DNA of 55,625 bases from Prorocentrum cordatum. Taxonomy: Eukaryota. Below are positions 1-47,336 of this stretch, piece by piece; position 1 is the first letter of the stretch; each line of letters opens with the position of its first letter. The stretch spans positions 62,001-117,625 of the forward strand of contig CAUYUJ010000146.1 in NCBI GenBank assembly GCA_963575745.1, given 5' to 3'. A program made the position numbers and the translations under genes. The notes under the pieces were generated by a model that was given only the letters and a program-made list of their open reading frames with translations, made no database searches and was not told the origin of the DNA.

Positions 1-187
1 TCCGAAAAGCCCTCTTCTCGCCGACGCGGCATCGTCCCGTCCTTGTGTCGGGTTTCCTATTCCTCTTCTCGCCGATGCGGCATCGCCCGATCCTTGCGTC
101 AAGCTTCCTAACCTTCATGGCTGGCGATCTCGAACCCAAACGGCACGGCAGAGATCGGGGGCGGGACAAAGAACTGACACATGGAGC

Positions 188-393
188 GGGACCGGGACCG
201 GGAGCCCGGGACCGGGACCAGCACCGACACCGGGACCGGGACCGGGTCCAGCACCCCCGTTCCCGGTCCCGGTCCCGGCCCCGGTCCCGGTCCCGGTCCC
301 GTGGTCGGTTCTGCTGCTCGTCCAGGGCTCCCCGTCCCTGTCCCGCTCCCGGTCCCGGTCCCGCTCTCCCCCAGGTCCCGGTCCCGGTCCCGG
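188..393. repeat. Hexamer arrays in inverted orientation: (GGGACC)n then (GGTCCC)n
   Basis: GGGACC units at ~188-250 are followed by GGTCCC units at ~260-393, so the arrays could fold back on each other. Confidence 0.8.
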
Positions 394-644
394 TGTCGGT
401 CCTGGCCCCTGCAGGACCCCTCCTCCTCCTCCTCCTCTTGCTCGCCCTCCTTTCCCCCCCAGCAAAAAGCAAACGACGACGACGAGCACGGCGACAACGA
501 CCACGATTTCTTCAGCCGCTCAATGCGAGCGCCTGCCTCCTCGCGCGCGCGCGCGCCGAGCCCGCGCCTCAGATCTCTTATGATAACCCCCGCTGCTGCG
601 GAGACCGCCCCCGCTGCTGCGGAGGTCTCCGCAGCCGCGCGCCG

Positions 645-2994
645 TCAGCTGGAGTCGCTTGAAGGGCTGCGGCGCCGCGACAATGCCTCGAACGCGTCAC
701 TGTTGAACGCAAACGTGTCCGCAGGAAGCGGCGACTCCCTGGAAAGGAGCTGCGGCGGGGGAGGCTGCGGCGGCGGCCTCGGGACGAGCGGCGCTGCCAG
801 AGGGCGGGGCGTCTGCGACTCTCTTGGCAGGAGCCGCTTTGGCGGAGGGTGCGGCGGCTGGCTCGGGACGAGCCGCGGTGGCGCAGGGTGCGGTGTCTCC
901 TCCAGCGGGGGGGCCCCGCGGCGTCCTCCTCCACGCGGGGGAGATGGCGGTGGTGGTGGCATCATTGGCGGCATGCCTGGCGGACGGCATATCTGGCCTG
1001 GGAGGAGCGGGCGCCATGCCCTCGGCCTCAGCATCGCCTGGCCTGTGTGGGGTGGGTGCGCGGGCGGCGTGGGCAGGAACCGCCCTGCCCACGCCGCCCT
1101 GCGGTCGCCGCCCTCCACCTGCCCACTGCGTCTGGAGCGGCTGCGCCCCCTCTGCTCCTGCCCTCTGCGTCTGGAGCGGCTGCGCTCCCGCTGCTGCGAG
1201 GGCACTCTCCTCATTCGGTCTTTGCTCCTCTGCTCCCGCTTTCTGCGTGTGGAACGGCTGCCCCCCCGCTGCTGCGAGGGCTTCGCCCTCTTTGGGGTTC
1301 TGCTCCTGATATCTTTCTTCTTGTTTTTCTTCTTCTTCTTCTTCTTGTTTTTCTTCATCTTCTCCTTCTCCTTCTTCTCCTCCCTCTCACCTCTGTCAGG
1401 GTTGCTCTGTTCGTCCTGGGGCGGCGTGGGGCTGCAGAGGCCGACGGCGTCGCGCCCGTCGCCCTCAAGCTCCTCCTGGGCTCCGTGCGCCCCCGCTGCT
1501 GCGGAGGCTGCTGCTTCAGATTCTGTCTCCGCCTCCTCCTGGTCTCCGTGCGCCTCCGCTGCTGCTGAGGCTGTTGCTTCGGGTTCTGTCTCCGCCCACT
1601 CTCCCCGCTGTTTTTTCCCACTTGGCTTCCCGCTTCCGATCCTTCTTCCTGGCCGCGGCGCCTTTGCCAGACTTCCTGTTCTTGGCTTCTATAAAAACGA
1701 ACAATGTGTGGCAATGTTCCGTGAGGCGGTTCGCATCCTGGGCCTTGTGGATCACCCTGTGCAAGTGCGGCCAGTCATATGCATCCTGCTCCTTGCGCTC
1801 CGCGTCCGTGAGCCTGACCCAGGTCGGACGCGCCACCCAATCCAACTGGCGGTACTGCAGGCTGGTGAGGAGCCCCCAATGCTGCGGAGGCTGGGAAACC
1901 TGATTCAACCAGTGCGGCAGATCAGGCTGCCCGCCCGCAGGGCACTCGCGAACCTGAGCGGGGCCAAGAATCACGATGTAGTGCGGGTGCGTCACGTGAT
2001 AACCTTTTGTCGGACACCACAAAGCCAAGCCGAGTACGCCTGTACCAGACGCGCCGCAACTTCTGAGCAGCTCCGAAAGATCCTCCCTGTCTGCGTCAAA
2101 GATCCCAGCGAGAATACGCACTCGGTGCCACAACGCCAGGTTCCGCAGCCCGTTGCGGAAGTTTTCGGGCCACGGGTGCCCCGCGAGGCTCGTCTGGTGT
2201 CGGAAGAACACGCCCCCCACTGCTATGGAGAGTTTGCCTTCCTTTGCTTTCGGATTGTGAGCCACCGCTGCCAGGGTCACCGACCAGGCCTGAACCAGGA
2301 ACCTCCCGTGGCAGTGCCAGCGAAGCACCTCGCACTGCTCGACGCGCTCGGGAACCCAGAGGAGAGCCCCGACGCACTCGCGCGCGACCTCCCCGTGGAA
2401 GCCACTTTGGCGGATGAGATCGTCGAGATGTTGCTTCCGCCGATCGCGATTGATGCGTGCACCAGGCTCGAAGGAGACTAAGACGACCCCTTCGCGCCTG
2501 TCCCTGACAGCTGCGACCCAATCCGACAGGGGGGCGCCCGCGCGCAGGACGAGGGAAGCGAAAGCCAGATTCACGCGCGCCTCTGTCTGCCCCTCCTGCA
2601 CCTGGTCTTCGTCGTCGTACAGCAGGGGCACAAGAGGCTTGGAATGGCTCGGGCCGCGCTCTTCCGATGGGAAGTGCGGGCGGCCTTCCTCTGGGAAGCC
2701 CTCATGGACAGGAAGCGCTGGCGACCGAGCCTTCGAGGTCAAGGCGAGAGTCTTGATCACGCGGGCCCCCGCTGCTGCGGAGGAGCTTTCACGCAGATTG
2801 CGCGCTGCGATCAGAGCCTGCCGTTGTCGCCAATTAGTCGTGCAGGGAGATCTCGGTCTCGGGTCATCGGAGCCACCCTGTCCAGGCTCGATTACCACTG
2901 TGGCGGCGCCTGGCTCCACGGATGCCCCCGCTGCTGCGGACAAAAAAAAAGAAAAAAAAACAAAAAAGAAAAACAAGAAAAAAAAAAAAAAAAA

Positions 2995-3037
<43 letters not shown>

Positions 3038-3162
3038 AAAAAAAAAAAAAAAAAAAAAAATAAAAAAAAAAAAAAAACACAACAATGAGAAAAAAAAAAA
3101 AATAAAACAAAAAAAACAAAAAAAAAATATAAACAAAAAAAAAAAAACAAAACAAAAATAAG

Positions 3163-3202
<40 letters not shown>

Positions 3203-3603
3203 AAATAAAAAAAAAAGAGCGCCTCCTTAGCCGTTATGACTACAAGGCGGTTGGCGGCGGCCGTTAACTTCCGCGCCTCTTCGATCCGGCCATTCTCCAT
3301 CATTTCCTGAGCAACCAGCAGGCTCTGCGAAACGCTTTCCTGGGCACCAGACATCAACGAAAACAATGACCGAAGTTTCGTTGCAACCTCCCCCCCCGCT
3401 GCTGCGGAGGCCGGTGCTGGATCTGCCATTCCATGCGGAACTGCATCAGGGGCCTCCTCTGGCAGCCCCCGCTGCTGCGGAGACTTCGGCAGAGGTTCCT
3501 GCGCGGCTCCAGTCGCGCCAGGCTGCTCCATGCCCTGGGCCGCCCCCGTCGCGGAGGCGGGCGGGCGCGGCGGGGGGCGGACCTGCAACGGCTGCGGATT
3601 CAC
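645..3603 (-). pseudogene. Intronless gene of unknown function (cassette gene 1): globular core plus Lys/Arg/Ser- and Pro-rich tail; probable frameshift and A-rich insert
   Basis: ORF 1516..3603 has a globular-looking core (LYDDEDQV...HCHTLFVFIEAK). A shift in the T6 run at 1611-1616 joins it to the frame of ORF 645..1358 (KQRGEWAETEPEA...KKNKKK...RSRSRR...PPMMPPPP). An A-rich tract at 2941-3216 interrupts it without breaking frame. Start codon uncertain. Confidence 0.55.
2941..3216 (+). repeat. A-rich low-complexity tract
   Basis: About 275 nt of almost pure A with scattered C/G/T. Confidence 0.95.
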
Positions 3604-4493
3604 TTTATCGCAATGCCATCCCTCCCTGCGCTCAAATGACTTTTCCCCTTGCGCCAGTCTGCTGCTCCCACTTCTGAACTACCTCATCCCTTCTACCTCT
3701 GCCTGCTCCCTCCTCTTCCTGTTCAGTCCTCCCTCCTCCCTCCACCGCGCTCATTTCTCCTTGCTCCCTTCTCTGCTCCTCCTACGTGGGGCGTTTCACG
3801 ACAGCGACGACGACGACGACGCCGACGAGAACGATGACCACGACGGCGACAACGAGGGCAACGACGACCACGACGACGACGACGAGGACGATGACCACGA
3901 CGGCTACCAGCGACGACGACTAGCGACGACGACGATCGACGACGACGACGCCGACCACGACGACGACGGCGAGGACGACAACGAGCGACGACGACGACGA
4001 CAATCGACGCCGACGAGGAACGACGACGACGAACGAGGACGACGATTACGACGACGAGATGACGAAGGATCGAAGATCGAACCTCGAAGTGCGAAGCTTC
4101 GAAATTCAAACTTCGATCTTCGAACTCCGAACTTCCAGCTTCTAACTGCGAACGTCGCTGGGGTGCCAGGGATGGACTGGGATGGAGGGAAAATGGGAAG
4201 GAAAAGCGAGGAAGCGGGAGAGGAAGTTGGAGGAGAACGAACAGGCGTGGAGCGACGAGGAACGGGCGGCGAGGAGCCGACGTTGAGGGCGGCGGGATGG
4301 GGGGACAGGGAGGAGAGGGGGACTTCAAAACGAAAATCGCGCCACGGCGCCTGCACGCGCGCCCCCGATCTCGGCGGCCGACGCGCGCGCCCCTGCAGAA
4401 ATGCAACGCGCCCTTCATTCGAGCCCCGCTGCTGCGGAGCCACCTACTCCACAACCAAATCGTCTGGGGAGCTGTTCGGACCCCAAACTACTA
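3448..4493. repeat. ~1-kb direct repeat, copy 1 (intergenic spacer module)
   Basis: Aligns by eye with 5338-6331 from AGGGGCCTCCTCTGGCAG to CCCAAA(A)CTAC. Contains a CT-rich block, (GAC)n, 7-nt TTCGAA-type repeats and a GC-rich block. Confidence 0.95.
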
Positions 4494-5318
4494 GTTCTTC
4501 AGCCACTCGGCTCTTGCGAGTCCGCCCTCATGACAAGGGCAACCTTCACATGGGGACACTCAATGGGGTGTTGATTGAGAACGCCCCATGTGGCTGGTGG
4601 CAGGAACGGACGAGGGGGGGCGGATAGAGGAGCAGGACGAGCACTGGCAGGGGATATGCACCAGGAGAGAGATCTCATGGAGGAAGAGGAGGGGAGGGGA
4701 CGAGAGCCACTCATAATTAAGCGCACGCAGGCCCACGCACGTGCTCCATTTCTCAGCGACCGCCGCGCCGCCATGAGAACTGTCGTACCACCGCCGCTAC
4801 TGCGGCGGATGCGTGACCTCTCCCATCCCTGTCCTGCGCTGTTTCTGCTACCGCCCTCCCCCCTTCCAGCCAAGCTCGGGTTTCATGCTCGGAGACGGGC
4901 GCGGCTGGCGGCTCTTAGTGCGGGTGCGCGTGCTGCCTCCAACTCCTCATCCCCCTCCTCCTCCTCTCCTCATCCCCCCTCCTCTTCCTCCTCATCCTCC
5001 TCTATCGGCCCAGCTCCGATCGCCGCTCAGCTCTCCTGGTGCGGCTGGCGGCAAAAGTACCGAAAATTGCCTGGGGTGTCCTTCGCCGTCTTCTTCGACA
5101 TCTCAAGCATCATCTTGCCCTTCTCCTCGGTACGGCGCGCCTCCTCCATCATCTGCCGCGCCTGGTCGACGAGCATCTGGCCCTTCACTCCAACGGCGCG
5201 TGCATGGCGGCAACGATTGCGGCAACGATTGCGCCGTGGTCGCCCAGTGCCAAACGCTGCCCTCCGTCGCGATGAGCTCGAAGTCATCGACGTCGCACTT
5301 GCCCGCGATGCTCGCCAT
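4491..5318 (-). pseudogene. Degenerate small gene between the two spacer copies (coiled-coil-like segment, Cys-rich end)
   Basis: Fragments MASIAGKCDVDDFELIATEG, GQMLVDQARQMMEEARRTEEKGKMMLEMSKK and CEGCPCHEGGLARAEWLKN-TAG(4491-4493) lie in different frames. Confidence 0.3.
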
Positions 5319-5337
5319 AGCGGCGCAAAAACCGCGA

Positions 5338-6331
5338 AGGGGCCTCCTCTGGCAGTCCCCGCTGCTGCGGAGACTTCGGCAGAGGCTCCTGCGCGGTTCC
5401 GTCGCGGAGGCGGGCGGGCGCGGCGGGAGGCAGACCTGCAACGGCTGCGGCTTCACTTTATCGCATTTCCATCCCTCCCTGCACTCACGTGGCTTTTCCC
5501 ATTGCGCCAGTCTGCTGCTCCCACTTCTGAACTACCTCATCCCTTCTACCTCCATCTGCACCCTCCTCTTCCTGTTCAATCCTCCCTCCTCCCTCCACCG
5601 TGCTCATTTCTCCTTACTCCCTTCTCTGCTCCTCCTACGTGGGGCGTTTCACGACAACGACGACGACGATGACCACGACGGCGACAACGAGGGCGACGAC
5701 GACCACGACGACGACGACGAGGACGATGACCACGACGGCGACCAGCGACGACGACTAGCGACGACGACGACCGACGACGACGACGCCGACCACGACGACG
5801 ACGGCGACGACGACAACGAGCGACGACGACAACGACAATCGACGCCGACGAGGAACGACGACGACGAACGAGGACGACGATTACGACGACGAGATGACGA
5901 AGGTTCGAAGATCGAACCTCGAAGTGCGAAGCTTCGAAATTCAAACTGCGACCTTCGAACTCCGAACTTCAAACTTCGAACTGCGAACTTCGCTGGGGTG
6001 CCAGGGATGCAATGGGATGGAGGGAAAAATGGGAAGGAGAGAACGAGGAAGCGGGAGAGGAAATTGGAGGAGAACGAACAGGCGTGGAGCGACGAGGAAC
6101 GGGCGGCGAGGAGCCGACGTTGAGGGCGGCGGGGTGGGGGGACAGGGAGGAGAGGGAAGACTTCTTAACGAAGATCGCGCCACGGCGCCTGCACGCGCGC
6201 TCCCGATCTCGGCGGCCGACGCGCGCGCCCCTGCAGAAATGCAACGCGCCCTTCATTCGAGCCCCGCTGCTGCTGCGGAGCCATCTACTCCGCAACCAAA
6301 TCGTCTGGTGAGTTATTCGGTCCCAAAACTA
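5338..6331. repeat. ~1-kb direct repeat, copy 2
   Basis: Homologous to 3448-4493 with small indels. Confidence 0.95.
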
Positions 6332-7475
6332 CTGTTTGCCACCCGCTGCTGCGGACGCCGAGGGCCTGGTGCTGGACGCCGCGGCCCCGCTGCTGCGGGG
6401 CCCCTGAGAGGGCGTCGGCCCCCCCTTCTCTCTGGCGGCGTCGAACTTGACCTTGCGCTCCACACCGAGGTCCTTGTGCCAGCGAAAAGTTCCTGACCCG
6501 TCGCTCCCGCCCAAACCCGCGGTTGGTGGCCTCACCGTGTCCGCGTGGGGGGACGAGGGGCAGAGCTTCGACCTTCCTGTCGCCCCAGTGCGGGTGTAAA
6601 CGGACGCCTGTCCCGTCGTCGCGGTGCAACACGAAATCCCACATCGGCAGCTTCACTTTCACCCGCTGCCCCGCGAACTGTCGCGCGCGCACAATACTCT
6701 GACGCATGTGGTCGTAGCTGTTTGGCCGGACTTCGAGGGAACAGCCGATCAGAGCCCCGCTGCTGCGGGGCCCCTCCACGACCTCCCTGATATCTTCCTC
6801 CCTGAGCGTCGCCACCATCTCTTGCCACCGCCAAGGGACTTCCTCGTCGCTTTTGAAACCAAAGCTCGTCCTCGCACCGTGGTCGCAAACAGCGACCATG
6901 GTGGGCTCCGCATTGTCAAACCACTTGGCTTCTCACTCGAACGGGGCAGTTGGGTCTTCATTCAGATGGCGCCACCATTTCAACGCTTGATTGTGTTGCT
7001 GAAACGCCGTGCCGGGCCTCTCTTCATAACTCAAAACATAATTAACATCAAACTTCTCAAAATCCTGGGGCCCGCGCGCCGCCGCCGCTGCGGTGGCGCG
7101 GGGCTCCTGCGCCGCAGGCGCGGCTCGGGATCCCGACCCCTCTCCTGAAACTGTGTTCCCAGGTTCTGGTACGTTTCGGAGGGCAGCCCTCACGAAATTA
7201 TCGAATTCGGGCATGCCGAGACCAGGGGCGCGGGGGCTCACAACGCCAAGCGCGGCGAAGCGAGACGGCCGTTGAGGCGAGACCGCCGCCGCTGCTGCGG
7301 CGGCAGGGCCATCGCGCCATTTGGCGTCCTCCGTTGGCGTGTGCCCGTCTTGTCGCCAGTCTCTCCAACCCCTCGCTGACCAATCATGGCCGTCCTCCCA
7401 GCCACGCCAGCCGCTGCTGCGGCTATCCCACCATCCTCCCGCGCCATCCCATGTGTATCCGCCTGCATCGCCCAT
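6329..7475 (-). pseudogene. Intronless gene of unknown function (cassette gene 3) with an in-frame TGA and one frameshift
   Basis: ATG at 7475 gives MGDAGGYTWDG...QHNQALKWWRHLNEDPTAPFE, then TGA (6933-6935), then continues in frame EAKWFDNAEPTMVAV...PWRWQEMVATL...WDFVLHRDDGTGVRLHPHW. A probable shift near 6545 leads to PPTAGLGGSDGSGTFRWHK and TAG at 6329-6331. Confidence 0.65.
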
Positions 7476-7900
7476 TGCAAGACGATGGCGCAGGCGCGCG
7501 TTAGGCCGCGACGGGCCCAGCTGCACCGGTGCTCGCGGGCGATCCCACGGGCGCGGGATGGTTTGAGCATAGCGGCGACGGACGACGCGACGTGATTGGA
7601 CGGCGGAGAACTTGAAAGGAAGGGGGGTTGGAAACGAATGAACGAAGTGGACGAAGAGCGGAAATCGAACCAGAGGGGGGGCGAAAAAAGAGCGGAAAAG
7701 AATAAGGACATGCAGACGAAGGAGAGTGACGAGGTAGATGGCGGGCCAGAACGGCAACGGAGGATAATGTGGTGGAAATTGTGAAAAGGACGCATGGAAA
7801 AACACGACGAGGATCACAGACGCAAAGATGATGAGCGCAGTGGTAGCATGACATATCCGAAATCAAGAAGCAGGATGACGAGGAACGGGATGACGAGCAA

Positions 7901-8012
7901 CTCTGTCGCAGAGAGCCTCCGAACGCACCCCCTCTGTCACAGAGGGCCTCCGAACGCACCCCCTCTGTCACAGAGGGCCTCCGAAAAACACCCCCTCTGT
8001 CACAGAGGGCCT
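7901..8012. repeat. 3.5 tandem copies of a 30-31 bp unit containing the palindrome CCCTCTGT-C-ACAGAGGG
   Basis: Unit CTCCGAACGCACCCCCTCTGTCACAGAGGGC read directly. Confidence 0.9.
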
Positions 8013-8269
8013 CAATGATCACTTTAATGCGGCTTCTGGATTAGCATGGCCCCATGCATGCACTAGGACCGCATTAAACATAGCACCCTCCAGAAACCCT
8101 AAGATCGCCCTGATCCTCCTCCCCGCCCTCTCTGCACCTCTCATTAATCGCTTCGCTCATTCCGCCAGTCCATATGATTGCCTCGCCGCTGTCGTTTGTC
8201 GGGGTGTCGCTGTCAATGCGGTGCGGTTGGGCGGCTGCCAGTTTTCGGTGGCGGTGGGTGGCGGCTCAG

Positions 8270-8560
8270 AGGCCTCACGGATGTTGGTTGGGCTCGCGCG
8301 GTTGGCCTCTCAGGGGCCTTTGGGAGGCAAGTTTGAGGCCTCTTGTGGGCCGTGTTGGGGCCTCTTGGGGCCTCCTGGGGCCTCTTGGGGCTGAAGGCTG
8401 GACTTTGCGGTTCCTGGTCCCCTTCTTGGGCCCCTCTTGCGGCCGTTTTGGGGCTTTCTTGGGCCGTCTCGGTCGCCTCTTGGGCTGTCTTGGGGCTATC
8501 TTGGGCCGTCTTGGGGCCCTCTTGGAGGCTTCGTGGGCGGTCTTGGGGCGGTCTTGGAAT
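8270..8560 (+). repeat. Degenerate ~11-bp (GGGCCTCTTGG-like) tandem repeat of a dispersed family
   Basis: Same family at ~9860-10090, 10480-10790, 12570-12660, 12980-13620 and 34040-34200, and reverse-complemented at 31620-32235. Confidence 0.8.
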
Positions 8561-9672: not shown

Positions 9673-10952
9673 TATGAAGAAAGACCCGCGCCCCGCGCTG
9701 CACATGATTGCAAAGGGATGGATCCGTCGCCAAGCCAAGTGCTGGCTTATCTATGGCCTTCGACCCATATCGCTACTGTGCCTGAGTTTTGGGCTAGAGA
9801 TTCTCGGATACCTGTCTGTTGGCATGCTTCTCGGGCGCCTCGTGGAGCGATTTTTGAAGCTTCTTGGGGCCTCTTTTTGGGCCCTTTGGGGCCTCTTGGG
9901 GGTCTGCCACTTGGAGTGGAGGGCTCGAGTTGTCAGATTGAGTTCCCGCTCTTGGATCCCTCTTGTGACCCTATTGGGCCGTCTTGGGTGCCTCTTGGAC
10001 CGTTTTGGGGCTGTCTAGGGCCGTCCTGGGGCCCTCTTGCCTCTTGGGCTGTCTTGGTGTGATACTTGGGGCCTCTAAGCCGTTTGGACGCTGTTAAGAC
10101 CCAAAATGCGAATATGCTAAAATGCGTGTTTCCCGTAAGGATGGGACAACTTTTGCCTCTCTCGGGGCGCAGGAGCCTTCTTAGGACGTCTCCGGAACCT
10201 CTTGAGCAGTCTTGAAACAATATTCGGGCGTCTTTGAGCAGGCCGCTCTGGTCGTTTTGTTGGTGTCCTCCGGAGCTATTTTGAACGGCGGGGGGGGCCG
10301 GGACGCCCCGGAAGGGGTCAAAATGTTGTAGGCCACAAGGAGGGGGGAGGGTGGGGGGGGGCAGGTGGTGGGGGGGATGGGGGGGGAATTCCTGGACAAT
10401 CACTCGCGCGCTTCGCGCACGCTTAGGTTCTAGTCGGTCACAAGCAATCGGGCCAGCGGGTGCTGGCCGTTGCGGAGTCCTCTTGGGACTGTCTTGCAGC
10501 CTCCGTCAGGTCCCCTTGGTCATTCCTATGCCGTCTTCGAGCCTTCTTGGGACATCTCTGGGCGCTCTTGGGTCGTCTTGGGGCCATCCTGGCCCTTCTT
10601 GGGCTCCAATGGCGGCTATCTTGCGGTTGCCCTGGGCCGCCTTAGGACCCTCTTTCGGCCCTCTTCGGGCGCTACGTGGGACATCTTGGTGGCTGGGTGC
10701 CCTCGGGGAGCCTGTGATTGGTCTACGGGGGGTCTTCCAAGATCGTTGAGTCCTGGGGTGTGGTCTTGGGAGTCTTGGGGCCGTCTGAATTGCGCCTCTG
10801 AGGGGTATTGCGCACGCCGAATAGCGCTAGCACCAACGCTACGAACCCCGTGATCCCGAAGCTAACAAGACAAAGGGCGCGAAAAGGAGGGAAGATGGCG
10901 GAGGGATGGAGGGAAGGGTTGCGACAGGGATGGCGGATGCAAGCATAACATG

Positions 10953-11582
10953 TTTCGGCGCCGTGTGCGGTCATCTGTTGCTGGAAATTAACCGCAGTGA
11001 TGCTCGCTGGCGGCCTTACCCGTGCTCGAGGCGGCCACGAAAAAAGGTTCGGCGCCGCGTGCGAGCATCTAGTGCTGGAAATTAACCGCAGTGATGCTCG
11101 CTGGCGGCCTTACCCGTGCTCGAGGCGGCCCAACAAAAACTGATTCGGCGCCACGTGCGAGCATCTAGTGCTGGGAATTAACCGCAGTGATGCTCGCTGG
11201 CGGCCTTCCCCTTGCTCGACGCGGCCACGACAAAAGGTTCCGCGCCGCGTGCGAGCATCTAGTGCTGGAAATTAACCGCAATGATGCTCGCTGGCGGCCT
11301 TCCCCTTGCTCGACGCGGCCACGAAAAAAGGTTCGGCGCCGCGTGCGAGCATCTAGTGCTGGAAATTAACCGCAATGATGCTCGCTGGCGGCCTTCCCCT
11401 TGCTCGAATCGGCCACGAAAAAATGTTCGGCGCCGCGTGCGAGCATCTAATGCTGGGAATTAACCGCAATGATTGATGATCACTGGTGGCCTTGCCCGTG
11501 CTCGAGGCGGCCCAACAAAAACTGGTTCGGCGCCGCGTGCGAGCATCTAGTGCCGGAAAGTAACCGCAGTGATGCTCGCTGG
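10953..11582. repeat. 94-bp tandem satellite, ~6.5 copies
   Basis: CTGGAAATTAACCGCAGTGATGCTCGCTGGCGGCC recurs at 10981, 11075 and onward with 94-nt spacing. Confidence 0.95.
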
Positions 11583-12914: not shown

Positions 12915-13769
12915 ATTCCTTTTCTTCAGAAATAACACTAGAACCATCGCGCGCGCTTTGCGCGCGCTCAAGTTCTAGCGAGCTTCTTGGGGCCTCCTCG
13001 GAGCATCCTGGACTGCTTCTTGAAGTCGTCATGGGACCTTCTTGGCATGTCTTCGGGGGCCTCTTAGAAAGGGTTTTGAAGCCTTTTGGGTGCCGTCTTG
13101 GGGCCTCTTGGAGCCTCTTTTGGGCTTCTTGGGAGCCTCTTGGGGCCTCTTGGGGGCCTCTTGGGGCCTCCTCGGCGCTTCCTGGCGGCATCTTGGGGCC
13201 TCTTGGGGGCATCTTGGGGCGGAGAGCTTGATTTTTGGGTTCGCGTTCCCTCTCTTGGGCCCCTTTTGGGGCCTTCTTGGGACCCTCTTGCGCCGTCTTG
13301 GGCGGCTCTGGGGCCGTCTCGGGGCTCTCTCGGGCCGTCTTGGGGCTCTCTTGGGGGCCTCTTGGGCCGTCTTGGAGCGGTTTGGGGAGCCTCTTGGACG
13401 GTGCTTTAGCGCCGGAAACACGAAACAGCGAGAATGCACAAAACATAAAAACAAATCAAAATCAACGATTTTGCCCTCTCGGGGCGCTCTTGAGCGGCAT
13501 CTTAAAGGCCTCTTGGGGCGTCTTGGGGCCTCCGGGGCAGTTTAAAACGCATCGTGCGTCGCCAAAGGCCCCTGGAAGGCGTCTTGGGGGTGTCTCGAGA
13601 CCGTCTGGGGCCACTGGGATTGCTGTCTGAGGGCTCCCCGGGGCGATTCTAGGCCTCCCAGAGGCGGGCCCGGGCCCCGGGCCCCACATTTGCGGTCGAA
13701 ACTCCGAGCCCTGGCCCCCGGACCCGGTCCCCCGTTATATGAATATTCTCCGCAGCGCGGAGGAGAGCT

Positions 13770-15598: not shown

Positions 15599-18500
15599 TC
15601 AAATCCAGGACCGCGCCCTGCGCCGCTCGATCAGCGGCCGCAGCATGTACTCGGGGTAGGTGCGGTCGGGTCCGCTCCGGCCGTGGATCGAAACGGTGGC
15701 CGTCGCGTGGCGCTGTGGGACGACGGCAATCTCGACCTCGGCGGTGCCGGCGCCGGGGCGGACGTCGACGCCGTGCGGGTCGTCGTTGTCGCTGGAGCGC
15801 AGGGGCGACAGCGAGGGGGAGGCCTCTGGGGACCTGATCCGCGAGCGGGTCGTCGGAGACCGCGGGCTCGGGCTCGGGCTCGGCGGCGGGACGATGTCCC
15901 TGGGCTCTGGCCCGCTCGCGGGCCCCACGACCGTGCCCGTGAGGAAGCCCTGCTCCGCTCCCAGGTACACCTGCACGGGAGTGCCGCGGTCGAAGCGCCT
16001 CCTGTGAAGGGGCCCCAGGACACACAAATAAATACACACAAATAAAAACATGCCCCATATTTTCCTATATCTTCTGGGTTTTTGTTCCCCCCCCAGTTCC
16101 CATACTTTCCCATATTTTCCTGGGAGTCGACGACTGATTGTGTCTGTGTGTTTTTCCCCTCCTGATCCTGAGGCGCTTGCCCGGCATGCTCTTGAGCACG
16201 GGCAGGTCCTCCTCCTGCATCGGGCTGCTCTCGGGGCTGCTGCTGGGGTTGCCGTCCTCCTGTCCGATGGGCAGCCGCGGGGCCTGTGCCGGCCCGCTGC
16301 TCGTCAGCGCGTCGCCGCCAAGCGGGGGCACCTGCGGCACCGAGCCGAGCTCCGCGCTGCCAGCGACGTCCTGATCGCTGCTCCTCCTCCTCCTCCTCCT
16401 CCTCTCCTCCTCCTCCTCCTCCTCCTCCTCCTCCTCCCCTCCTCCCCTCCTCCTCCCCTCCTCCTCCTCCTCCTCCTCCTCCTCCTCCTCCTCCTCCTCC
16501 TCCTCCTCCTCCTCCTCCTCCTCCTCCTCCTCCTCCTCCTCCTCCTCCTCCTCCTCCTCCTCCCCCTCCCCCTCCCCCTCCTCCTCCTCCTCCTCCTCCT
16601 CCTCCTCCTCCGCCAGCGACGTCCTGATCGCTGCTCCTCCTCGGCCGCCTGCGTCTTCCGCGGCCTGGTCTCTCCTCGTACTGGTTCCCCTGGAGCTCCT
16701 TCTGGGCCTTGAGCTGTCTGGCGTGCTCCAGCATCTCCGTCTTGAGCTCGCTGTGCTCCAGCGCGACGTCATACCCGAGCCTCGGGTCCCGCGCCTCCCT
16801 CGGCGCCGCGTGTATGATGGCCGGGTACCAGTCCCCGTGCTTCTTGGAGAACACGCTCACCTTCTCACTCACACTGAACGGCAAGCGCAGGTTCTTCATG
16901 TCCGCGTTGGGTACGCGCTGTCTGGCGGCCATGACAAAAAGGTCGTACGTGAAGACGTTCATGCCGTGCTCCTCGCTATGGTAAGGCTGGCCCCTGATGT
17001 CCATGACCCTCGCACCTAACCACGAGTTCGTGGTCTTAGACCAATACTCTACAACGTCGCCGACGGCGTACGCAGTCGCTGTGCCCTTCGGTTCGGGCGC
17101 TGCCTCCGGCTCTATCATGATCACGGTCTCATCCGCCCTGGGCGCCTTCGATGTCGCTCTCTTCACCATGGCATCCTCGGTATCTACGTGCAACCGGTAG
17201 GAGACCCACTCCATTTTGTCCAGACCCTTGATCCACTGGCGTTCCTTCCAGATGATCCGGTCGAAGTCGCCGTCGAAGAGGACCTCGTCCGACTGCTCCT
17301 CCAGCGGCAGCACCTCCACGCCGCAGACGCGCAGCTGGTCGAGGAGCGACAGGACCTCGTTGCACCTCTCGTCCCGGGGGGCGCTCGGGGAGCCCAAGAC
17401 GAGCTTGCACTCCGGGGCGTCTGGGGACCCCCGGAATCCCCTGGCGTCCTCCTCGCCGTCGACCTTCAGGACGTACTCGTCCTGCTCCGCGTCGTAGAGG
17501 ACCGAGATGTCGTGCGGGAGGCCGTCGGCCACGCGCGTGCTCCCTAGCAGGAACTCCTTGCCGATCTGCCAGGCGGCGACGCCCCCGCGGATCAGCAGGC
17601 CTTTTGCCTTCCCGACGGGTCGCATCGGCTCGACCTCGGAATAGACCTTGGCGACGAGCAGCGCGTTCGTGGCCAGGGTCCTCACTCGGACCTCGAGCTC
17701 GAACTCCACCTCGCCGCCCAAATTCAGATCCACGTGCTCGATGGGCTCCCCACTGCTCGGCGTCAGGATGGCGCGGCCCGCCTCCCGCTCGTGCTGGAAG
17801 AAGGCGAAGAGCCCATCGCCGAGCGAATACTTGAGCCTCGTCTTGGAGACGCCGTCCTCGGTGGAGAAGCCGTTGTCCCGGGTCCAGTCGATGGTGGTGC
17901 CCCTGCTCTCGCCGCCCTTCACCTGTACGCGGAACGTGCCGCCGACGGGCTGCCTGCACATGTTCCTGACGTACCAGATGGATAGGAAGCAGCAGATGGC
18001 GGATGAGAAGGCGATGGCCGCGGACACGCAACCCGCCTGTACCTCGCAGCCTTCGCCTGTCTCCTCGTCCGGGCCGCTGGGGCACGTCCAGTCGTACGGG
18101 CACTGGATGTACGACCTGCAGGGGAGCGAGCTTGGCTCGAACGAGTCCTGCGTGAAATCTGGGGGCGCGTTTGCGTTGCACAGGTTGGTGTTGCTGGTCA
18201 GGCAATCGACGTCGCGGGTGACTTCACCCTCGCCGCACGTCGTGCTGCAGACGGACCACTCTGTCCTGTCGGGTCGGGCGAAAGGGGGGGATAGCAAAGG
18301 GGGGGTTTGAGAATCAGCTCACGTAGCTGATTTTCCCGGCGCCTCCCGGCGCCGGGAGGCGGCCATGTATCGAGGAATGGGCCCCTCGGTGGGCCGAAAC
18401 CAGCTGCATGCAGCAAATTTCGTAACCCCCCCTTTCCCAATCCCCCCCTTTCGTCCTCCCCGCTCCTCGCTCCCTCCCCCCCCTCCCCCCTCCCCCTCCC

Positions 18501-21500
18501 CCTCTTCCTCCCCCTCTTCCTCCTCCTTCCTCCTCCTCCTCCTCCTCCCTCCTCCTCCTTCCTCCTCCTCCTCCCCTCCTCCTCCTCCTCCTCCTCCTCC
18601 TCCTCCTCCTCCACAATTACACAATATGAAAACACTCTCCCACTTCCCCTGATGGCGTCCCGAAGATATCCGACCCCCCCCCGCGTATTGTTTTTTACAC
18701 ACAAGATTCCCGGGAACGGGTTTTCGCTGGTGTTTTTTTCAAAATGCTGCTCTCGCCGAGGCGCCGGCCTCATTTTCGGGCCCCGCTCGTTCCGAATCGT
18801 GCTCCCGCTGCAGCGCTGGCCTCATTTCCGTGCTTCCGCTCGTTCCGAATCGTGCTCCCGCTGCAGCGCTGGCCTCATTTCCGCGCTTCCGCCCGTTTCG
18901 ACTCGTGCTCCCGCTGCAGCGCTGGCGTCATTTCCCGTGCCATGCCACAGCACACGCGCACACACACACACCACCACCACCACCACCACCACCACCACCA
19001 CCACCACCACCACCACCACCACCACCACCACCACCACCACCAGCAGCAGCAGCAGCAGCAGCACCACCAGCAGCACCACCAGCAGCACCACCAGCAGCAC
19101 CACCAGCAGCACCACCAGCAGCACCACCAGCAGCACCACCAGCAGCACCACCAGCAGCACCACCAGCAGCACCACCAGCAGCACCACCAGCAGCACCACC
19201 ACCACCACCACCTCCACCATCACCAGCACCAGCACCAGTACCAGCACCAGCACCAGCACCAGCACCAGCACCAGCACCAGCACCAGCACCAGCACCAGCA
19301 CCAGCACCAGCACCAGCACCAGCACCAGCACCACCACGCACACCACGCACGCACGCACGCACGCGCACCACCACCCACTAGTCCGCGGATAGAGAAAATC
19401 AGCGCCATGGTAAGGGATGGGAGGGTGGGGTAGGACGTCAGATATGACGCGCGCGCACCTAGCTTGTCCTCCCCCCCCCTCCTCCTCCTCCTCCTCCTCC
19501 TCCTCCTCCTCCTCCTCCTCCTCGATCCTCCTCCTCCCCCCCTTTCGTCCGGCCCGATCCTGGCAGCCCAGCGCGCCACGGGCAGGCTCTGGAGGGCGGT
19601 CGCGGGCGCCCCGGCGACGACCGCGGCCGTGCGGAGGCCCGCCGGCACCGCGACGCCGGCCTCCTCTGTGACTACCTACCAGACCACCCCAACCCAACCC
19701 GAAGACCCGAATTTCGGGCTGGGGGGGGGTAAGGGCTCCACATGTGTTTTTTCGATGTTTCCCGACCCCCCCCCCACTGGAAATCGAGGGTAAATCTGAG
19801 CCTTCGGGTTGGGTTGGGGTGGTTTGGTGGGTGGTGACTCTCGCCATCGCTCGGACGTCCATTTCCCGTGCATTTTTCGGTCTCGTGCGTGCTTTTTTCT
19901 TGCTCGAGGGTCCACGATCGTCCTCAATGGTTCTCGCCGAGGAAAAATGCACACGTCCGAGCGATGCCAGGTCCTGCAAGAAGCTGACGAAACTACGGGT
20001 GAAATTGCCCGTCCCGAGGCCAGCCAGGCCACCCTCGATTGCCGTGCGGTCGTCAATCGGGTACAGCTGGAGGCACAGTTTGACGAACAGCCCCTCCTCT
20101 CCTGTTGAAAGCCTCGCTGGAAGGCCAGACGCTGAGTCCGAGTTCAGGTCCTTCATCTCCAGCAAATAAACCTGCTCTGGGCGCAGGCCTAAAACGTCGC
20201 CGAACGCGCTCTGCATAGGAGCCCTGGTCCCGCCACCAGCCCACTCCGCCATAATGCCCGAGTTCGCCTGACCGGCAACGAACGCAATCTCCACCAGCAA
20301 GACCTCGACACGTTCGAGCGCCTCCGCGTCCGCATCGGAGACGCAGACCACCGGAATCATCTCAAACGAGCCCAAGGTGCAATTGATTGGCTCAACCAGC
20401 TGGTAACCGTCATCGCAAACTGGCGAGCACGACTCACGGCTTGCAATACCGATGCAAGACGAGCTGTCGGCCACGTTCAACATGCCAGGCGGCGAGAATG
20501 CGTAGCAACGCGATTCTGTGCAAGACCCGTCACCCTTTGACAGATTGTATGACGTGTCGGCTGTACACTGAACTGAGATGGAGGTCCCAAGTAGGTTCTC
20601 GTAGCCTTCGGAACAAGCTATGCGGCATGTCTCGGGGTAAAGCATGTTTCCGCAATTTGCATCCTCTGTCTCATAACCGGTCGGCAATGCTGGACTGCCA
20701 ACACATGTGTTAGGCACGCAGTCAGCACGTCCCTCGAACATCTCCGTCTCGTCGCTGCAGACCATTGTCCCATTTACAACATGCCCCACACCACAAACAG
20801 GCTCGCAAACGTCTCCATATTCAATGCCCGAACATTCGATGCATACTATGGTGTCCAACCCCGATGATGAAGTGAAGCTGGGTCCACTTATCCTGACAGG
20901 AATACCAGCGAACACAGGAAGAGCACATACACAGCACGTTGTGGACGCTGGCTGGCTGGCTAGCTAGCTGGTGGCTGGCTAGCTGCCGCCGCGCCGGGCC
21001 AGGAGCAACTGCTGCGACAGTGGCGACTGCGGGTCTCTCAGCAGGCGTGGTATCGAGGAGGCCGGCTTGTGATTGCCACGGACGGGGCGTGCTGGAACCA
21101 GCAGCTGGGATGGGCTCGCCGGGCCGGTCTGGGCATCTACGTGGGCCCTCGGTGCGGCAACCTCAGTGCAGCTCTCCCCGGCATGGATCAATCCAGTGGG
21201 CGCGCCGAGCTCCTCGCCATCATTCTGGTCTTCGCCGAGGCTGGCCGGCTGGGGCTGCAGGTGGAGATCTTGACGGACTACGAGTGCGCCGCCAAGGCTT
21301 GGGCAGCGTGGAGCGGAGGCCCGTCCTTCCACCCCAGGGAGCAGCTGGATCTTTGGCGCCGCCTGGAGCCCCTCGCGCGGGCGGCCCTCGCAGCAGGTTC
21401 CGCCCTCACCTGGGTCGCTGCGCACGGCCGTGCGGCGCACGAGCAGGAGCTGAGGTGGAACAAACTTGTTGACGACCTCGCCGTGCAGGGGTCCAAGCGG

Positions 21501-24500
21501 CACACGGGCCTCCAGCGCTTGACCCAGGCCATCCGCCTGAAGGAGGCCAACCAGGAGAAGGCCCAAGCCGTTCAACGGCACATGGTGCGCTGCATCGTCC
21601 TGTGGGGCCGCCAGGAGGAGGAAGAGGAGGAGGAGGAGGAGGAGGATGAGGTGGGCGAGGAGGAGGGCGAGGAGGACGCGCCAGGTGGGCCGGGCCCCGA
21701 AGACCTGGCAGCAGCTGACCCACCCAGTGGCGAGCCGGCCCCTTCTGGCGCTGCACTGGCGGCGGTGGCGCTCGAGCAGGCTGATTTCCCTCGGTACCCT
21801 TGGCAGCACCAGGCCAGGGCCACACGCCAGCTCATCCTGGGGCCCCCTGTGACCCTCCACAGTGGGAATTGGATGATGGGGAGCCACGACAGATACCACG
21901 CCATGCGCTGGTACCTGGGCCAGCTCCGGTTCGACGCTGCCGCCTCCGAGGTTGGCACCACATGGGCCGAGCTGGCCGTGGACTTCGAGCTCAGCACTGG
22001 CGTGGAGCTAGCTCCGCCTGGCAGCGCCATGGCCGCGCGGGCCCAGAAGTTTGCAGATGTGGCCTCTCGTGCCTGGCAGCTGTCCACGCCCAGGCAGCAG
22101 CGCCAACGCGGGGGCAACAGGCAACGGGCGCTCGGGGACCTCACAGTGGTCTCTCGGGTCACCGCCCTCGTGGCGCTCGGCTTCAAGCAGGGCCCGGGGG
22201 TGACCTCGCGTGCCATCTTTGTGCAGCCCTTCACGTATGAGGTGCTGCTGCGCGCGGCGCAGCGTGGACAGGCAGAGAGGCGCCATGCTCACCTCCAATG
22301 GCGGCCAGACTACGCAGGCGGCCCCGCACCGACCATGCCGGCAGCTGTCCGGCACGGACCGCCGGCGCCACCTGTGGCCGCTGCCAAGAGGGTGACGGCT
22401 GAGAGGATGGCTGCTGGGCACAACGCCGTCGCCGAGCGGAAGCGGCAGGAGCACAATGCCGTCGCGGACTCCCAGGGCCTCCACGTGCTTGGGCCCATTC
22501 CCCCGGGAGCTGACAACTCCCAGCCGGTCGTCTGTGAGCGGTGCGGGCGGCAAACGCAGAAGATGCGCCTGGCCAAGTTCAAGCGGGAAGCTTGCGCCGC
22601 AGCCTCGGGAGGCCGAGGGGGAGGAGGCGGGGCCGCGCCTGCGGCCCGGCGAGGAGGAGGCCGAGGAGGAGGAGGAGGCTGAGGAGGGGGCGGAGGAGGA
22701 GGGAGCCACGCAGATTCCCCACAACCCCAAGATGCAGCCAGCCGATGAGGAGGAGGTGGAGGAGGAGGAGGAGGAGGTAGAGGGAGGGTGTCGCCAGGCA
22801 GCTTGGCTACCACAACCGGGAGGTGCCGGGTGACGGTCGCCTTGCTGGGTGGCTGAATGGATGGTCTGCCGTTCCGTATTGGCAGAGCTTATTCTCTTTT
22901 GTCCTGCAGGTCAACACTGTGTCAGGTTCCTCGCAGAAGCACCGCCCCCGCCAGCACGTTGTGGACGTTAACGTGGGGGTCACCGTCGTGGAGGTCTGCG
23001 TCGACGTGGAAGTCAACGTAGCTGTAGTGTATATCCAAAGTTCCACCACGGGCACAGACGATTCCACCCACTCCACGATGTCACTAGAACCCCCTATCTC
23101 ATCGAGCTCATTCTCGACAAACTCATGGAACTGCGAAATCTTCTCATACAAACGAAGCAATGCCTCTTCGGTCTCATCCGTGTTTGTACCCTCAACTGTA
23201 ATTGTGTAGCCAATGTCCCACTCTTGACTGGCCAATCTTCGTTGAAACGACACGCGCCTTGACGTGTTTCTAACGACAACGGAGTTGATCGTGACCTTCG
23301 ACTGCGAAATGTTCAAGAAAGTTGCCATCGCTGTGCGCGCAACAGCTTCTACCGATGTTTTGTTTAGGGAGGTTGTGAAAGACATCGCGACATCAACCTT
23401 GACGAAGGAAAAACGCTCAGGAGTCGCTGTGGTGGTGGTGATCGTGCCAGTGGTTACCGTACCAGTGGTTACCGTCTCTGTCCTGCTTGATGCCGTTAGG
23501 CTGGAGGCGGTCGTTGAGTGAAACGTGGTGGAGCTGGTTAATGATGACGACTCGGTTGTAGAGATTGTTGTTGTGGACGTCACGGAGGTCGATATTGTGG
23601 TGCTGGATGTCATCGACGTCGTCTCAGTAGCAGTCGTGGTGGACGTCTCTGTTTTACTCGCGGTCGTGGTGGGCGTATCTGTGTAGCTCGCAGACGTGGT
23701 GGACGTCCCAGTGGTAGAGCTACTGGTGGTCGACGAGACCGTGGTTGAGGACAGCGTCGATGTTTTCGTGGCCGTCGTGGTGGACGACTGACTGGTTGAG
23801 CTGTCCGTGGTCGAGGTAGCTGAGGTTGTGGTAAACGTGGTTGTGGAAAGAGTCGACGTCTTGGTAAAAGTCGTAGTTGAAGTCCCCGTCGCAGACGTCA
23901 AAGTGGTGGTTGAGGAAGAACTCGTGGTGATCGAAGACGTTCCTGTAACCGAAGATAGAGTCGATGTAGAGCTGATAGTAGTTGCTGACACCGTGGTTGT
24001 AGACTGAGTCGTGGTGGAACTATCCGTGGTTGAAGACAAGGTGTTGGTCGAGGTCTGCGTCAGAGATGTTCGGGTTGTGGACGAAGATGCACTCGTGCTG
24101 GAAGTCCCAGTGGTCGACGTCGAACTTGTGCTAAAACTGATGGTGGTGGTGGTGGAACTCTCCGTCACTGAAGTCAAGCTTGTTCCCGAACTCAAAGAGG
24201 TAATAGACACACTACTGGTCGACGTCAACGTTGAAATTAAACTCAATGTGGTTGAAGACGTTCCGGTAAGCGAAGATAGAGTCGATGTAGAGCTGACACT
24301 GGTAGATGATAAAGACGATGTAGAAGTTACACTGATCGAGGTTAAGGTCGTGCTTGAACTAGACGTGGACGAACTCAAGGTTTGTGATGACGATGTTGCA
24401 CTTGAGCTCCCAGTAGAGGAAGACAAGGTCGTGCTAGAACTCTCCGTGATTGAAGAAAAGGTCGTGAGAGATGTTCGGGTTGTGGACGAAGATGCACTCG

Positions 24501-30600: not shown

Positions 30601-30691
30601 ATGGCAGTTACCGCAAATGTCGATTCGGGGTAATGACCAAGGATCGTCGAGCTGCTTTGGCTCCCCGTGTGCACAGCGAAAACAGCCCAGG

Positions 30692-30708
30692 CTTGAGCCA
30701 TAATGGCT
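30692..30708 (-). other. Relic dinoflagellate spliced leader (DinoSL)
   Basis: Minus strand AGCCATTATGGCTCAAG versus the DinoSL 3' part AGCCATTTTGGCTCAAG (16/17), ~90 nt upstream of ATG 30600. Confidence 0.8.
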
Positions 30709-31098
30709 GGAACCAACATAACTACGGACGGTCTTGGAAGCCTCTTGGGCCGTCTTGGAGAACTGGTAAGCCGAAAAAGCGAGAATGCCAACAACCGTCA
30801 GACACTGAAGGAAGAACACGAATCCCACCAGCCCTCTGGGCGTAGGTCGTTTAGGGCGTTTTCTCTCCCACCCTTCCCTCTTCCCCGTCGGGGAAGGGTT
30901 TATCACTGTTCCCTATTCGTAAACACCCCTTCCCCCAGGCGACTGGGGGCCAACCAGGGTCCATGACGACACCCCCCCACCATTCCTTGTACAAAAACAA
31001 CGCGAACCACACTCTGCCTCCAAATTCGGAACATGCGCAGCCAACCCGGTGCGGCCCCCCCCCACCATCCCTGTCAAAAACAATACATCGTACACTTG

Positions 31099-31893: not shown

Positions 31894-32615
31894 TTTTTTG
31901 TTTGCTCGGCTTTCCGCTTCCGATGGCCATCCGAGGCCTCAATATGGCCCCGACATGGCCCAAAAGGGCTCCAAAAGATGCCCCAGGGAGCTCTAAGACG
32001 ACCCAAAAAACACCCAAAAACGCCCGAAGAGGCGATTTTGGGGGCCCCCGAGGGGCGGAACTAATTGAAACTTTCCTCTTGTTTGATCCAAATCCTCCAA
32101 AATGGCCCCAAGAGCGCCCCCCAAACCCCCAAGAACGCCCCAAGGGCGCCCCAAGAGGCGCCCAGACGGCCCCAAAAGGCCTCCAAGAGGCTCCCAGGAG
32201 ACCCCCAAGAAACCTCAAGAGGATCTCCGAGAACAAGCATTTCAGAAGCTTCTGGCTCTCCGGTTCGCCGTCCTCCTCTTCCTCATCCACCTCTTCCTCC
32301 TCCTCCCTCCTCCCCCTCCCCCTCCTCCTCCCCTCCTCCTCCTTTTTCCTCCTTCTCCTCTTTCTCCTCCTTCTCCCCCTTCTCGTCTTTCTCGTCCTCC
32401 TCGTCCCCGCCCTACACAATCTCCTCCTCCTCGTTCTCCTCCATCTCCTCTTCCTCCTCCTCGTCCTCCTCCTCCTCCTCCTCAGACGACGACGGTTCCT
32501 CCTCCATCCTCCCCTTCTCGGGGTATGTGACAGTTTCCCCCGCCCTTTGTTTTTCTGCGTGCTCCCCCGCTTCCCTGATTATCTCAACTCCCTTTGGCAT
32601 CGTTTCTGGTTGGGC

Positions 32616-46965: not shown

Positions 46966-47336
46966 CGGAGGAGGAGGAGGAGGAGGAGGAGGAGGAGGAG
47001 GAGGAGGAGGAGGAGGAAGGCTCGGGCCGTTGACGCTTCGGGGCCGTGCAGCGGAGAGCGCGCCGCGCCGAAGCGTGGCGGGCCCCCACAGGCGTACACC
47101 CTGCGAAATGCTTAAGAAATCATGGGTTAAGAAATTCATAGTCTCTGAACTTGAATAAAAGCCAACATTTCTATGAAAATCTTGGGATGCACATTGAAAC
47201 GTTAAGACTACTCGAGACTCTGGCCGAAAACTTGGGTTTTCTTAAGCATCGCCTAGGGCGTAGCGACACGCGGGCCAGAAGTTCCCGACCGCCGGAGCGG
47301 CTTTCGCTGGGAACCCCCAAAGCGGGTGGTGAGATA

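Follow-up and report, generated by a model that had tools for sequence, protein, structure and literature searches.

A repeated sense-strand hairpin word in a multi-copy gene unit of Prorocentrum cordatum, a candidate cis-acting RNA signal

Abundance and strand bias of the word

We analyzed a 55,625-nt stretch of the genome of the dinoflagellate Prorocentrum cordatum (contig CAUYUJ010000146.1, positions 62,001 to 117,625; hereafter the window), in which a 12-mer, CCGCTGCTGCGG, recurs in 14 exact copies between positions 590 and 7422, all on the plus strand. All open reading frames (ORFs) with homologues in the region 0.6–7.5 kb are encoded on the minus strand, where the word reads CCGCAGCAGCGG and forms a CCGC/GCGG stem around an AGCA loop. 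The feature is real and strongly non-random, and it constitutes an array of stem-loops of a single format on the sense strand, the property that characterizes dispersed recognition hairpins. The explanation that we favor, with about even confidence, is that the word is a selected cis-acting RNA hairpin, private to a multi-copy gene family and recognized by a putative reader. We prefer a selected RNA tag to a chromosome-wide DNA signal because the hairpin fits the RNA of the genes, spans all three reading frames and is apparently kept in relatives.

The initial annotation of this DNA, made by inspection of the letters, had listed the 14 exact copies, and each was recovered on the plus strand, against a chance expectation of 0.02 (100 dinucleotide shuffles, maximum 1). 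Allowing up to one mismatch to the 12-mer gave 24 matches in the window, of which 21 lie within 590–7422, all of them on the plus strand and including the variants at 1188, 1266, 4794 and 6264 that had also been reported. The three outlying one-mismatch matches (31124 and 38120 on the plus strand, 39039 on the minus strand) correspond to the chance level of 1.15 ± 1.18. No exact copy was found in the other 48 kb of the window, minus-strand ORFs included, in agreement with the earlier observation. Along the minus-strand unit the hairpin, decayed copies included, recurs about once per 350 nt.

Composition was examined with Markov models of order 1–3 trained on the first 8 kb, which predicted 0.005–0.044 copies of the 12-mer. 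In addition, the shorter core GCTGCTGC carries CC..GG flanks at 14 of its 20 occurrences in 1–8000, compared with none of 41 in the rest of the window. Based on this flank contrast and the Markov expectation, neither GC content nor runs of Ala, Gln or Ser codons account for the count, and the explanation by GC content or Ala runs that the annotation had named as its own possible refutation does not hold. The conserved word extends to about 17 nt, with the minus-strand form C-U-CCGCAGCAGCGG-G-G-G, and the information falls to background beyond approximately ±3 nt. Sequences flanking the copies are mutually dissimilar at about 11 sites, which count as independent; the others lie in a segmental duplication or in short tandem repeats.

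Depending on the frame, the 12-mer encodes SAAAG, PQQRG or RSSG on the minus strand, and these peptides had been read correctly in the initial annotation, together with the conclusion that the word is not maintained for a peptide. Retention for a peptide, or a side effect of Ala, Gln and Ser codon runs, would fit the location of the sites in low-complexity protein rich in Ala, Ser and Gln and the placement of the copy at 7289 within a poly-Ala run, but we regard it as extremely improbable. One word gives rise to three peptides and occurs also outside the ORFs, in spacers and in a 3′ untranslated region (UTR), at a frequency for which the Markov models allow at most 0.044 copies and with CC..GG flanks that GCTGCTGC never carries elsewhere. 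Moreover, GCA is used twice at each SAAAG site, whereas only 24 of the 125 Ala codons outside the motifs are GCA.

Among public sequences, the 16-mer was present in 30 IMG/VR loci and at least 120 metagenome loci. In the 150 unrelated 16-mer-bearing loci listed, the 12-mer was present once in 147 and twice in three, and in none was it clustered. In a full-text literature search with the 12-mer on either strand, none of the papers listed had a title or opening lines of an abstract that concerned dinoflagellates or a sequence motif.

Structure of the hairpin on the sense strand

The interrupted palindrome recognized in the initial annotation corresponds to the CCGC/GCGG stem around its loop, and the extended consensus is 5'-(N)CUCCGC-AGCA-GCGGGG(N)-3', that is, a 7-bp stem closed by an AGCA tetraloop. 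Structure statistics were computed for the 13 non-duplicate exact sites over an 8-pair helix. Pairing was found in 93.3% of the cells of this helix, in comparison to 83.6 ± 2.3% in shuffled controls, and the covariation score was 0.319 versus 0.123 in shuffled controls; neither value was reached in any of 500 shuffles. When the partner columns were slid as a control, pairing was 44–62%. The outer three pairs covary. Stem pair 5 is U.G at nine sites, C-G at two and G-C at two, pair 6 is C-G at ten sites with one A-U, one G.U and one unpaired case, and pair 7 is C-G at six sites, U.G at four and G-C at three, while pair 8 is paired at 7 of the 13 sites. The loop is AGCA at all 13 sites, and AGUA in the variant at 4794.

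Flanks were also swapped between sites. With G.U pairs allowed, the minus strand had 50 extra pairs versus 26.1 ± 4.9 after swapping (p 1.4e-4), and with Watson–Crick pairs only it had 13 versus 4.5 (p 1.2e-4). On the plus strand this test yielded 13 extra pairs in all. The plus strand pairs poorly owing to pair 5, which at 9 of the 13 sites becomes a C.A mismatch, and therefore an unbroken 7-bp stem forms on the sense strand only.

A covariance model built from the same 13 sites was run over the whole window and revealed 21 minus-strand matches at E < 0.6, all within 587–7428, with a single plus-strand echo at the fully palindromic site 7283. The best match outside this region scored 15.1 bits (E 0.78), which agrees with the reported lack of copies in the remaining 48 kb. 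Beyond the training sites, the model identified the duplicate at 5359 and the decayed sites 1188, 1266, 1556, 1875, 4794, 6264 and 7082. Rfam gave no match at gathering score in the window, and only sub-threshold chance matches in 1–8400.

The gene unit and its copies

The hairpins lie in a unit of two genes encoded on the minus strand. Gene A (6329..7475) encodes a protein with a Trp-rich N-terminus and a conserved domain of no assigned fold, and gene B (645..3603) encodes an endonuclease/exonuclease/phosphatase (EEP)-fold, nuclease-like protein with a basic tail rich in Arg, Ser and Lys. Genes A and B are separated by a spacer of about 1 kb. A duplication took in this spacer along with the first gene B codons; the extra copy gave rise to gene C (5027..5531, minus strand), which, in the frames as read here, repeats the 5′ part of gene B in truncated and decayed form. 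Spacer unit copy 1 (3448..4492, minus strand) includes the first gene B codons and copy 2 (5338..6333, minus strand) includes the decayed start of gene C.

Pfam gave no match for genes A and B. For gene A, to which 12 related sequences were matched, the structure model was too poor to search (pLDDT 38.1) and the ESM Atlas provided no usable match. Its N-terminus (7310–7475, minus strand) contains nine Trp residues in the first 55 positions, mostly as GW or DW, a feature common to the relatives P0098, P0101 and P0109; we take it to resemble the GW/WG "Ago-hook" regions of Argonaute-binding proteins.

The gene B family comprises 95 representative proteins, with full-length members of 831–849 aa. 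The model of the gene B central domain (pLDDT 85.4) matched Tdp2 and LINE-1 endonuclease in Foldseek at E 2e-5. VIA-align paired the domain with neutral sphingomyelinase (Z 14.8, rmsd 3.7, 213 residues aligned), PDE12 (Z 14.5), Tdp2 (Z 14.4, rmsd 2.9, 197 residues) and LINE-1 endonuclease (Z 12.8). On the basis of these model comparisons, the central domain is assigned to the EEP fold and described as nuclease-like, although no Pfam EEP model matched the family. We considered and rejected a long interspersed nuclear element (LINE, a non-LTR retrotransposon), as no reverse transcriptase is joined or adjacent to gene B in 1–8 kb. Reverse transcriptase and other Pfam domains were absent from ORFs of at least 130 aa in 1–8 kb, and from 11 longer family-B proteins.

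The unit is multi-copy: approximately ten distinct contigs of run X1 cover single places, and protein clusters contain up to 31 near-identical members, although summed contig depths give no copy number. Genes A and B are probably linked elsewhere too: for P0098 of family A and P0124 of family B the longest contig is in each case 9,123 nt, and the reading frame of P0100, a gene A relative, runs on into the beginning of the spacer. An apparent joint 1512->6385 in run X2 was rejected as a rearrangement, as the short side has only 20 letters and 28 foreign letters lie between; we read it as another copy that shares just the motif.

The copy of the unit in the window appears, from its sequence, to be a pseudogene or to carry assembly errors. 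Gene A contains an in-frame TGA at 6933–6935, where relatives have Ser, and 1-nt frameshifts are located near 6547 in gene A and near 1611 in gene B. Neither frameshift is present in the X7 contigs, and much of the depth in X1 and X2 lacks them as well. Gene B has GTG at its start position (3601–3603). An A-rich tract of about 277 nt (2940..3216) lies inside gene B beside the hairpin at 2928 and is specific to this copy; relatives such as P0118 are continuous across it, and the tract may stem from a retroposed poly(A) or from a microsatellite that expanded without check. The tail region of gene B also contains a hairpin of 17 bp (1062–1099, minus strand), including a single wobble pair and closed by a CGGU loop, which is overlapped by a chance-level Rfam match only.

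Location of the individual sites

On the minus strand, hairpins are found in each of the three reading frames and in the two spacer copies, and two more lie in the 3′ UTR of gene B. Constrained protein is avoided: most coding sites lie in low-complexity linkers, and the copy within the EEP domain falls in a low-confidence loop. Longer predicted stems are found at 611, 3469 and 5359 only.

The 3′ UTR of gene B holds two exact cores. The copy at 611..622 begins 23 nt past the stop codon (645–647), scores 34.0 bits and caps a longer predicted stem, and the copy at 590..601 is the second of this tandem pair, 21 nt apart, with a partial model match of 23.3 bits.

In the tail of gene B, the core at 1188..1199 is a decayed variant (sense UCGCAGCAGCGG, U.G at pair 4, peptide PSQQR; 17.8 bits, E 0.23) inside a 78-nt tandem repeat, and P0118 and P0124 have PSQQRG at this place. 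The variant at 1266..1277 also has U.G at pair 4 and encodes PSQQRG (22.8 bits, E 0.025), where P0118 has PPQQRG. The exact core at 1493..1504 encodes SAAAG, and the peptide is identical at the aligned place in P0118, P0124 and P0001. A decayed copy at 1556..1567 (18.6 bits, E 0.16) occupies the second unit of a 63-nt tandem duplication. This copy and the one at 1875..1886 were absent from the initial annotation. The latter lies in the low-confidence loop of the EEP domain (pLDDT block 62), and two bases break its core here; the core is perfect in every contig of runs X1, X2 and X7 that shows both bases, the substitutions 1878 A>G and 1879 A>C accounting for almost the whole X1 depth and for the entire X2 and X7 depth. 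The corresponding peptides are PPQQRG in P0118 and SPQQRG in P0124.

Further upstream in gene B, exact cores encode SAAAG at 2769..2780 (PAAAG in P0118), at 2928..2939, which adjoins the poly(A) insertion, and at 3396..3407, close to the N-terminus. The exact core at 3469..3480 encodes PQQRG, with PKPPQQRGLP in both P0118 and P0124, and caps a longer predicted stem of 9 bp, an internal loop and 5 bp.

The spacer copies carry an exact core at 4426..4437, at the start of spacer unit 1, and another at 5359..5370, a duplicate of 3469 with one stem change (U.G to U-A) and a longer predicted stem. The sites at 5359 and 3469 are not independent because 3448–4492 and 5338–6333 are 89% identical. Between them, the variant at 4794..4805 has an AGUA loop and a 7-bp Watson–Crick stem (24.2 bits, E 0.013) and is missing in other copies, where X2 and X7 have 4794 C>A and 4796 G>A. 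The duplicate of 4426, at 6264..6278, has an extra CAG in the loop (21.4 bits, E 0.047).

In gene A, the exact core at 6343..6354 encodes SAAAG in the last codons, in the frame of the homologues, and the exact core at 6387..6398 forms an 8-bp Watson–Crick stem and encodes GPRSSGAAA, also in that frame. The exact core at 6757..6768 is inside the conserved domain and encodes GPRSSGA. The exact core in the poly-Ala run (7289..7300) has an 8-bp Watson–Crick stem in which pairs 5 and 7 show double compensatory changes. Close to the start of gene A, the exact core at 7411..7422 encodes RSSG(W), and here it is pairs 5 and 6 that show such double changes. A doubtful relative, CCGCCGCTGCGG at 7082..7093 (15.8 bits, E 0.57), is not counted as a member because its plus strand pairs better.

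Given these duplicates, it was considered whether the array is a functionless by-product, in which a hairpin-prone CNG-type word (CCG-CAG-CAG-CGG) arose in an ancestral copy and was then spread and homogenized by segmental duplication, slippage and micro-conversion in a young repeat family. Plain duplicates exist at 3469/5359, 4426/6264, 1188/1266, 1493/1556 and 590/611, triplet slippage is seen at 6264, and the second unit of the 63-nt tandem repeat has decayed as fast as its surroundings. We nevertheless judge this origin unlikely, since about 11 sites have unrelated flanks and the outer stem positions covary; furthermore, motif-type peptides persist in place in relatives that are 41–51% identical around them, and in both protein families they are 15- to 50-fold above the composition expectation.

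Conservation in relatives

Searches of viral, metagenome and genome contigs revealed no relatives of gene B, and those of genome and viral contigs none of gene A. Homologues with matching peptides at corresponding places have 41–75% identity. P0118 shows a motif-type peptide at each of the eight coding sites of gene B, two of them as PAAAG; its identity to gene B is 61–67% in the N-terminal and central segments and 46% in the tail. P0124, with a regional identity of 41–51%, has one at six of the eight sites, once as PAAAG; its match to site 2928 was seen in the sequence and not taken from a computed alignment. PAAAG would represent pair 5 as C-G, provided that C is the last base of the Pro codon. 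The gene A peptide GPRSSG is kept, both at 6757 and at 6387, in all four closer homologues that cover those sites.

When the peptides were counted in 97 family-B proteins, 28 were observed, in comparison to 1.6 expected from composition, 8 for reversed peptides and 4 for antisense-type peptides. In the 12 family-A hits, 20 were observed versus 0.38 expected, 4 reversed and none of the antisense type, one of the antisense peptide controls being depressed by the Cys-poor composition.

The initial annotation had proposed a DNA-level signal that behaves like Chi, KOPS, HIP1 or uptake sequences, or alternatively a tiny mobile insert. The strict single orientation and the strong over-representation speak for a genome-wide polarized word of this type, and a signal at the level of the nucleic acid is upheld by our analysis. 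The likeness to Chi and its counterparts is not, as the word occupies 7 kb of 55 kb within one eukaryotic gene unit, has no exact copy in the other 48 kb or its minus-strand ORFs, and its peptide footprints follow gene families A and B in other records. A mobile insert finds no support either: at 6757 the closer homologues have GPRSSGA and the distant ones GARGDGF, aligned without a gap or any change in length, and therefore the word arose there by substitution rather than insertion. The other coding sites lie in indel-rich linkers, where an indel comparison is uninformative. Shared flanks, terminal repeats and target duplications are lacking around the copies. Both the genome-wide word and the mobile insert are thus very improbable.

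Evaluation of an RNA hairpin and of a DNA-level site

In the mechanism that we propose, the minus strand would exist as RNA, the folded molecule would be this RNA rather than single-stranded DNA, and the hairpin would act in the RNA of the unit as a repeated cis-acting mark. A hypothetical protein, encoded by the unit or by the host, would read the hairpin, and its binding may have a consequence for the transcript; possible purposes include ribonucleoprotein assembly or packaging, sorting, control of stability, and cleavage. The hairpins would have been placed where the proteins tolerate them, namely in linkers, tails, the low-confidence EEP loop, spacers and the UTR.

Several points weigh against this explanation. 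The inner four base pairs and the loop are invariant across sites and are therefore uninformative on structure, and four non-consensus sites (6387, 6757, 7289 and 7411) contribute most of the covariation. At the nine consensus-type sites, pairs beyond base pair 6 numbered 15 versus 14.2 after swapping of flanks (p 0.40); an extension of the stem past 7 bp at these sites was rejected, as composition suffices to explain it. G.T pairs form in single-stranded DNA too, so the hairpin may also be one of the non-template DNA strand. The decayed copy in the window is about 98% like the run X7 contigs, and its 14 intact words therefore show recency and not selection. Conservation in relatives is seen at the peptide level only, and the proteins of each family are interrelated, so the peptide counts are not independent events. 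Run X20, which is only guessed to be RNA, has contigs over 7241–7944 and over simple repeats, from which nothing was drawn.

The main competitor of an RNA hairpin is a site that acts in DNA, either as a hairpin or cruciform of the non-template strand or as an asymmetric 17-bp protein-binding word. Such a site would have a role in transcription, replication, recombination or gene conversion among the copies, and it may be a target of the EEP-fold nuclease of the unit itself. The interrupted palindrome with its strongly conserved sequence core suits such a site, as does the fold of gene B, which is that of the DNA-acting Tdp2, DNase I and LINE endonucleases; the best EEP matches, however, also include the RNA-acting PDE12, Nocturnin and CNOT6L. 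The extra CAG in one copy is in line with it. The eight X7 contigs listed have 16 ends, four of which are located within or next to a copy (596, 3475, 4435 and 7423), a pattern that is small and comes from assembled contigs rather than reads. At these four contig ends the copies may differ by slippage, break, or lose coverage. The C.A mismatch at pair 5, present at 9 of 13 sites in the double-stranded or plus-strand form, leaves a continuous stem on the sense strand only, and about 20 same-sense coding sites in all frames would be unusual for a DNA-binding site. On balance, we consider a DNA-level site possible but of low probability, and retain a selected RNA hairpin as the preferred explanation.

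Other features of the window

The window has a GC content of 55–68% (2-kb steps) and contains dozens of microsatellites and minisatellites. With these repeats, and with partial reverse transcriptase and RNase H sequences as well as a thrombospondin type-1 (TSP1) domain, it is eukaryotic in character. The reverse transcriptase/RNase H fragments and the TSP1 ORF are located at 39511–40269 (minus), 20964–22679 (plus), 44920–47241 (minus) and 15634–18318 (minus), and none of them carries the hairpin word. A search for spliced-leader relics, which would point to retroposed mRNAs, gave no match to the leader in the window at up to three mismatches, and the 3′ part of the leader gave one chance-level match at 30692.

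Just upstream of gene A, positions 7901–8013 hold 3.6 tandem copies of a 31-nt unit that contains the palindrome CTCTGTCACAGAG. An 11-nt unit, consisting of TCTTGGGGCC and one further base, forms arrays at 8337–8558, 9950–10009, 13076–13397 and 32137–32197. Summed depth in the bin 8121–8400 is very high for X1 and X2, lower for X7 and low for X20, and the 11-nt unit may be an abundant short satellite. Minisatellites are present at 10954–11582 (6.6 copies of a 94-nt unit) and 36795–37223 (5.2 copies of an 83-nt unit). A minus-strand open frame of 2,701 aa (22807–30912) consists largely of about 84 copies of a 33-nt repeat (24867–27649) and has extreme local GC and AT skews; the part scanned with Pfam, 28000–30912, gave no match.

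Comparison with known systems and significance

In bacteria, Chi, KOPS, HIP1 and uptake sequences are DNA words that occur throughout the genome and are connected with replication, recombination or uptake. Like them, the word described here is short, over-represented and strongly strand-biased; unlike them, it is local to one eukaryotic gene unit, follows the sense of transcription and folds with U.G pairs. The histone mRNA 3′ stem-loop, with a 6-bp stem and a 4-nt U-rich loop, occurs once per mRNA and has a dedicated reader protein. The present hairpin is similarly small and GC-rich, but it has an AGCA loop and many copies instead of a single U-rich loop at the 3′ end, and is without a match in Rfam.

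The yeast RNase III Rnt1p cuts 14–16 bp from the loop, and a longer duplex is therefore needed; most stems here have 7 bp and fall short of this distance. Rnt1p reads AGNN-tetraloop hairpins, some of which are inside mRNAs (PMC4334505). Its substrates share with our hairpin A and G at tetraloop positions 1 and 2 (AGCA, and AGUA in the variant) and stability of the first 5–7 bp below the loop, and this loop specificity is known from budding yeast only.

By analogy, the nearest known way of working would be that of the dispersed packaging signals of single-stranded RNA viruses. In MS2, STNV and parechovirus, stem-loops scattered over the sense RNA share a recognition motif (PMC6281560, PMC5699041, PMC5431903). 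Such signals resemble the present array in that many small sense-strand stem-loops overlap coding sequence and are proposed to act as a joint tag for a cognate protein. They differ in being degenerate, whereas the core here is invariant over 12 nt and its carrier is a chromosomal multi-copy gene pair.

A broader view, which we put forward tentatively, is that multi-copy units of this dinoflagellate each bear a private hairpin format, here the AGCA loop on a fixed CCGC/GCGG stem, and together form a family-specific RNA tagging system. The proteins of the unit itself, or a surveillance pathway of the host, would use such a format to tell the transcripts of the unit apart, and the Trp-rich product of gene A and the EEP-fold product of gene B would be candidate readers.

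Dinoflagellates are thought to regulate their genes mostly after transcription, and to our knowledge almost no cis-acting RNA signals have been described in nuclear genes of this group. In the sections available to us, a review of RNA-binding proteins in dinoflagellates contains no mention of such a signal. The exact 12-nt hairpin core is a concrete candidate for such a signal, and the analysis defines two protein families without a Pfam entry, an EEP-fold nuclease-like protein and its Trp-rich partner, either as possible readers of the signal or as possible targets of its control. If family-specific tagging is true, it would add a layer of RNA identity, so far undescribed, to genomes in which control is mostly post-transcriptional.

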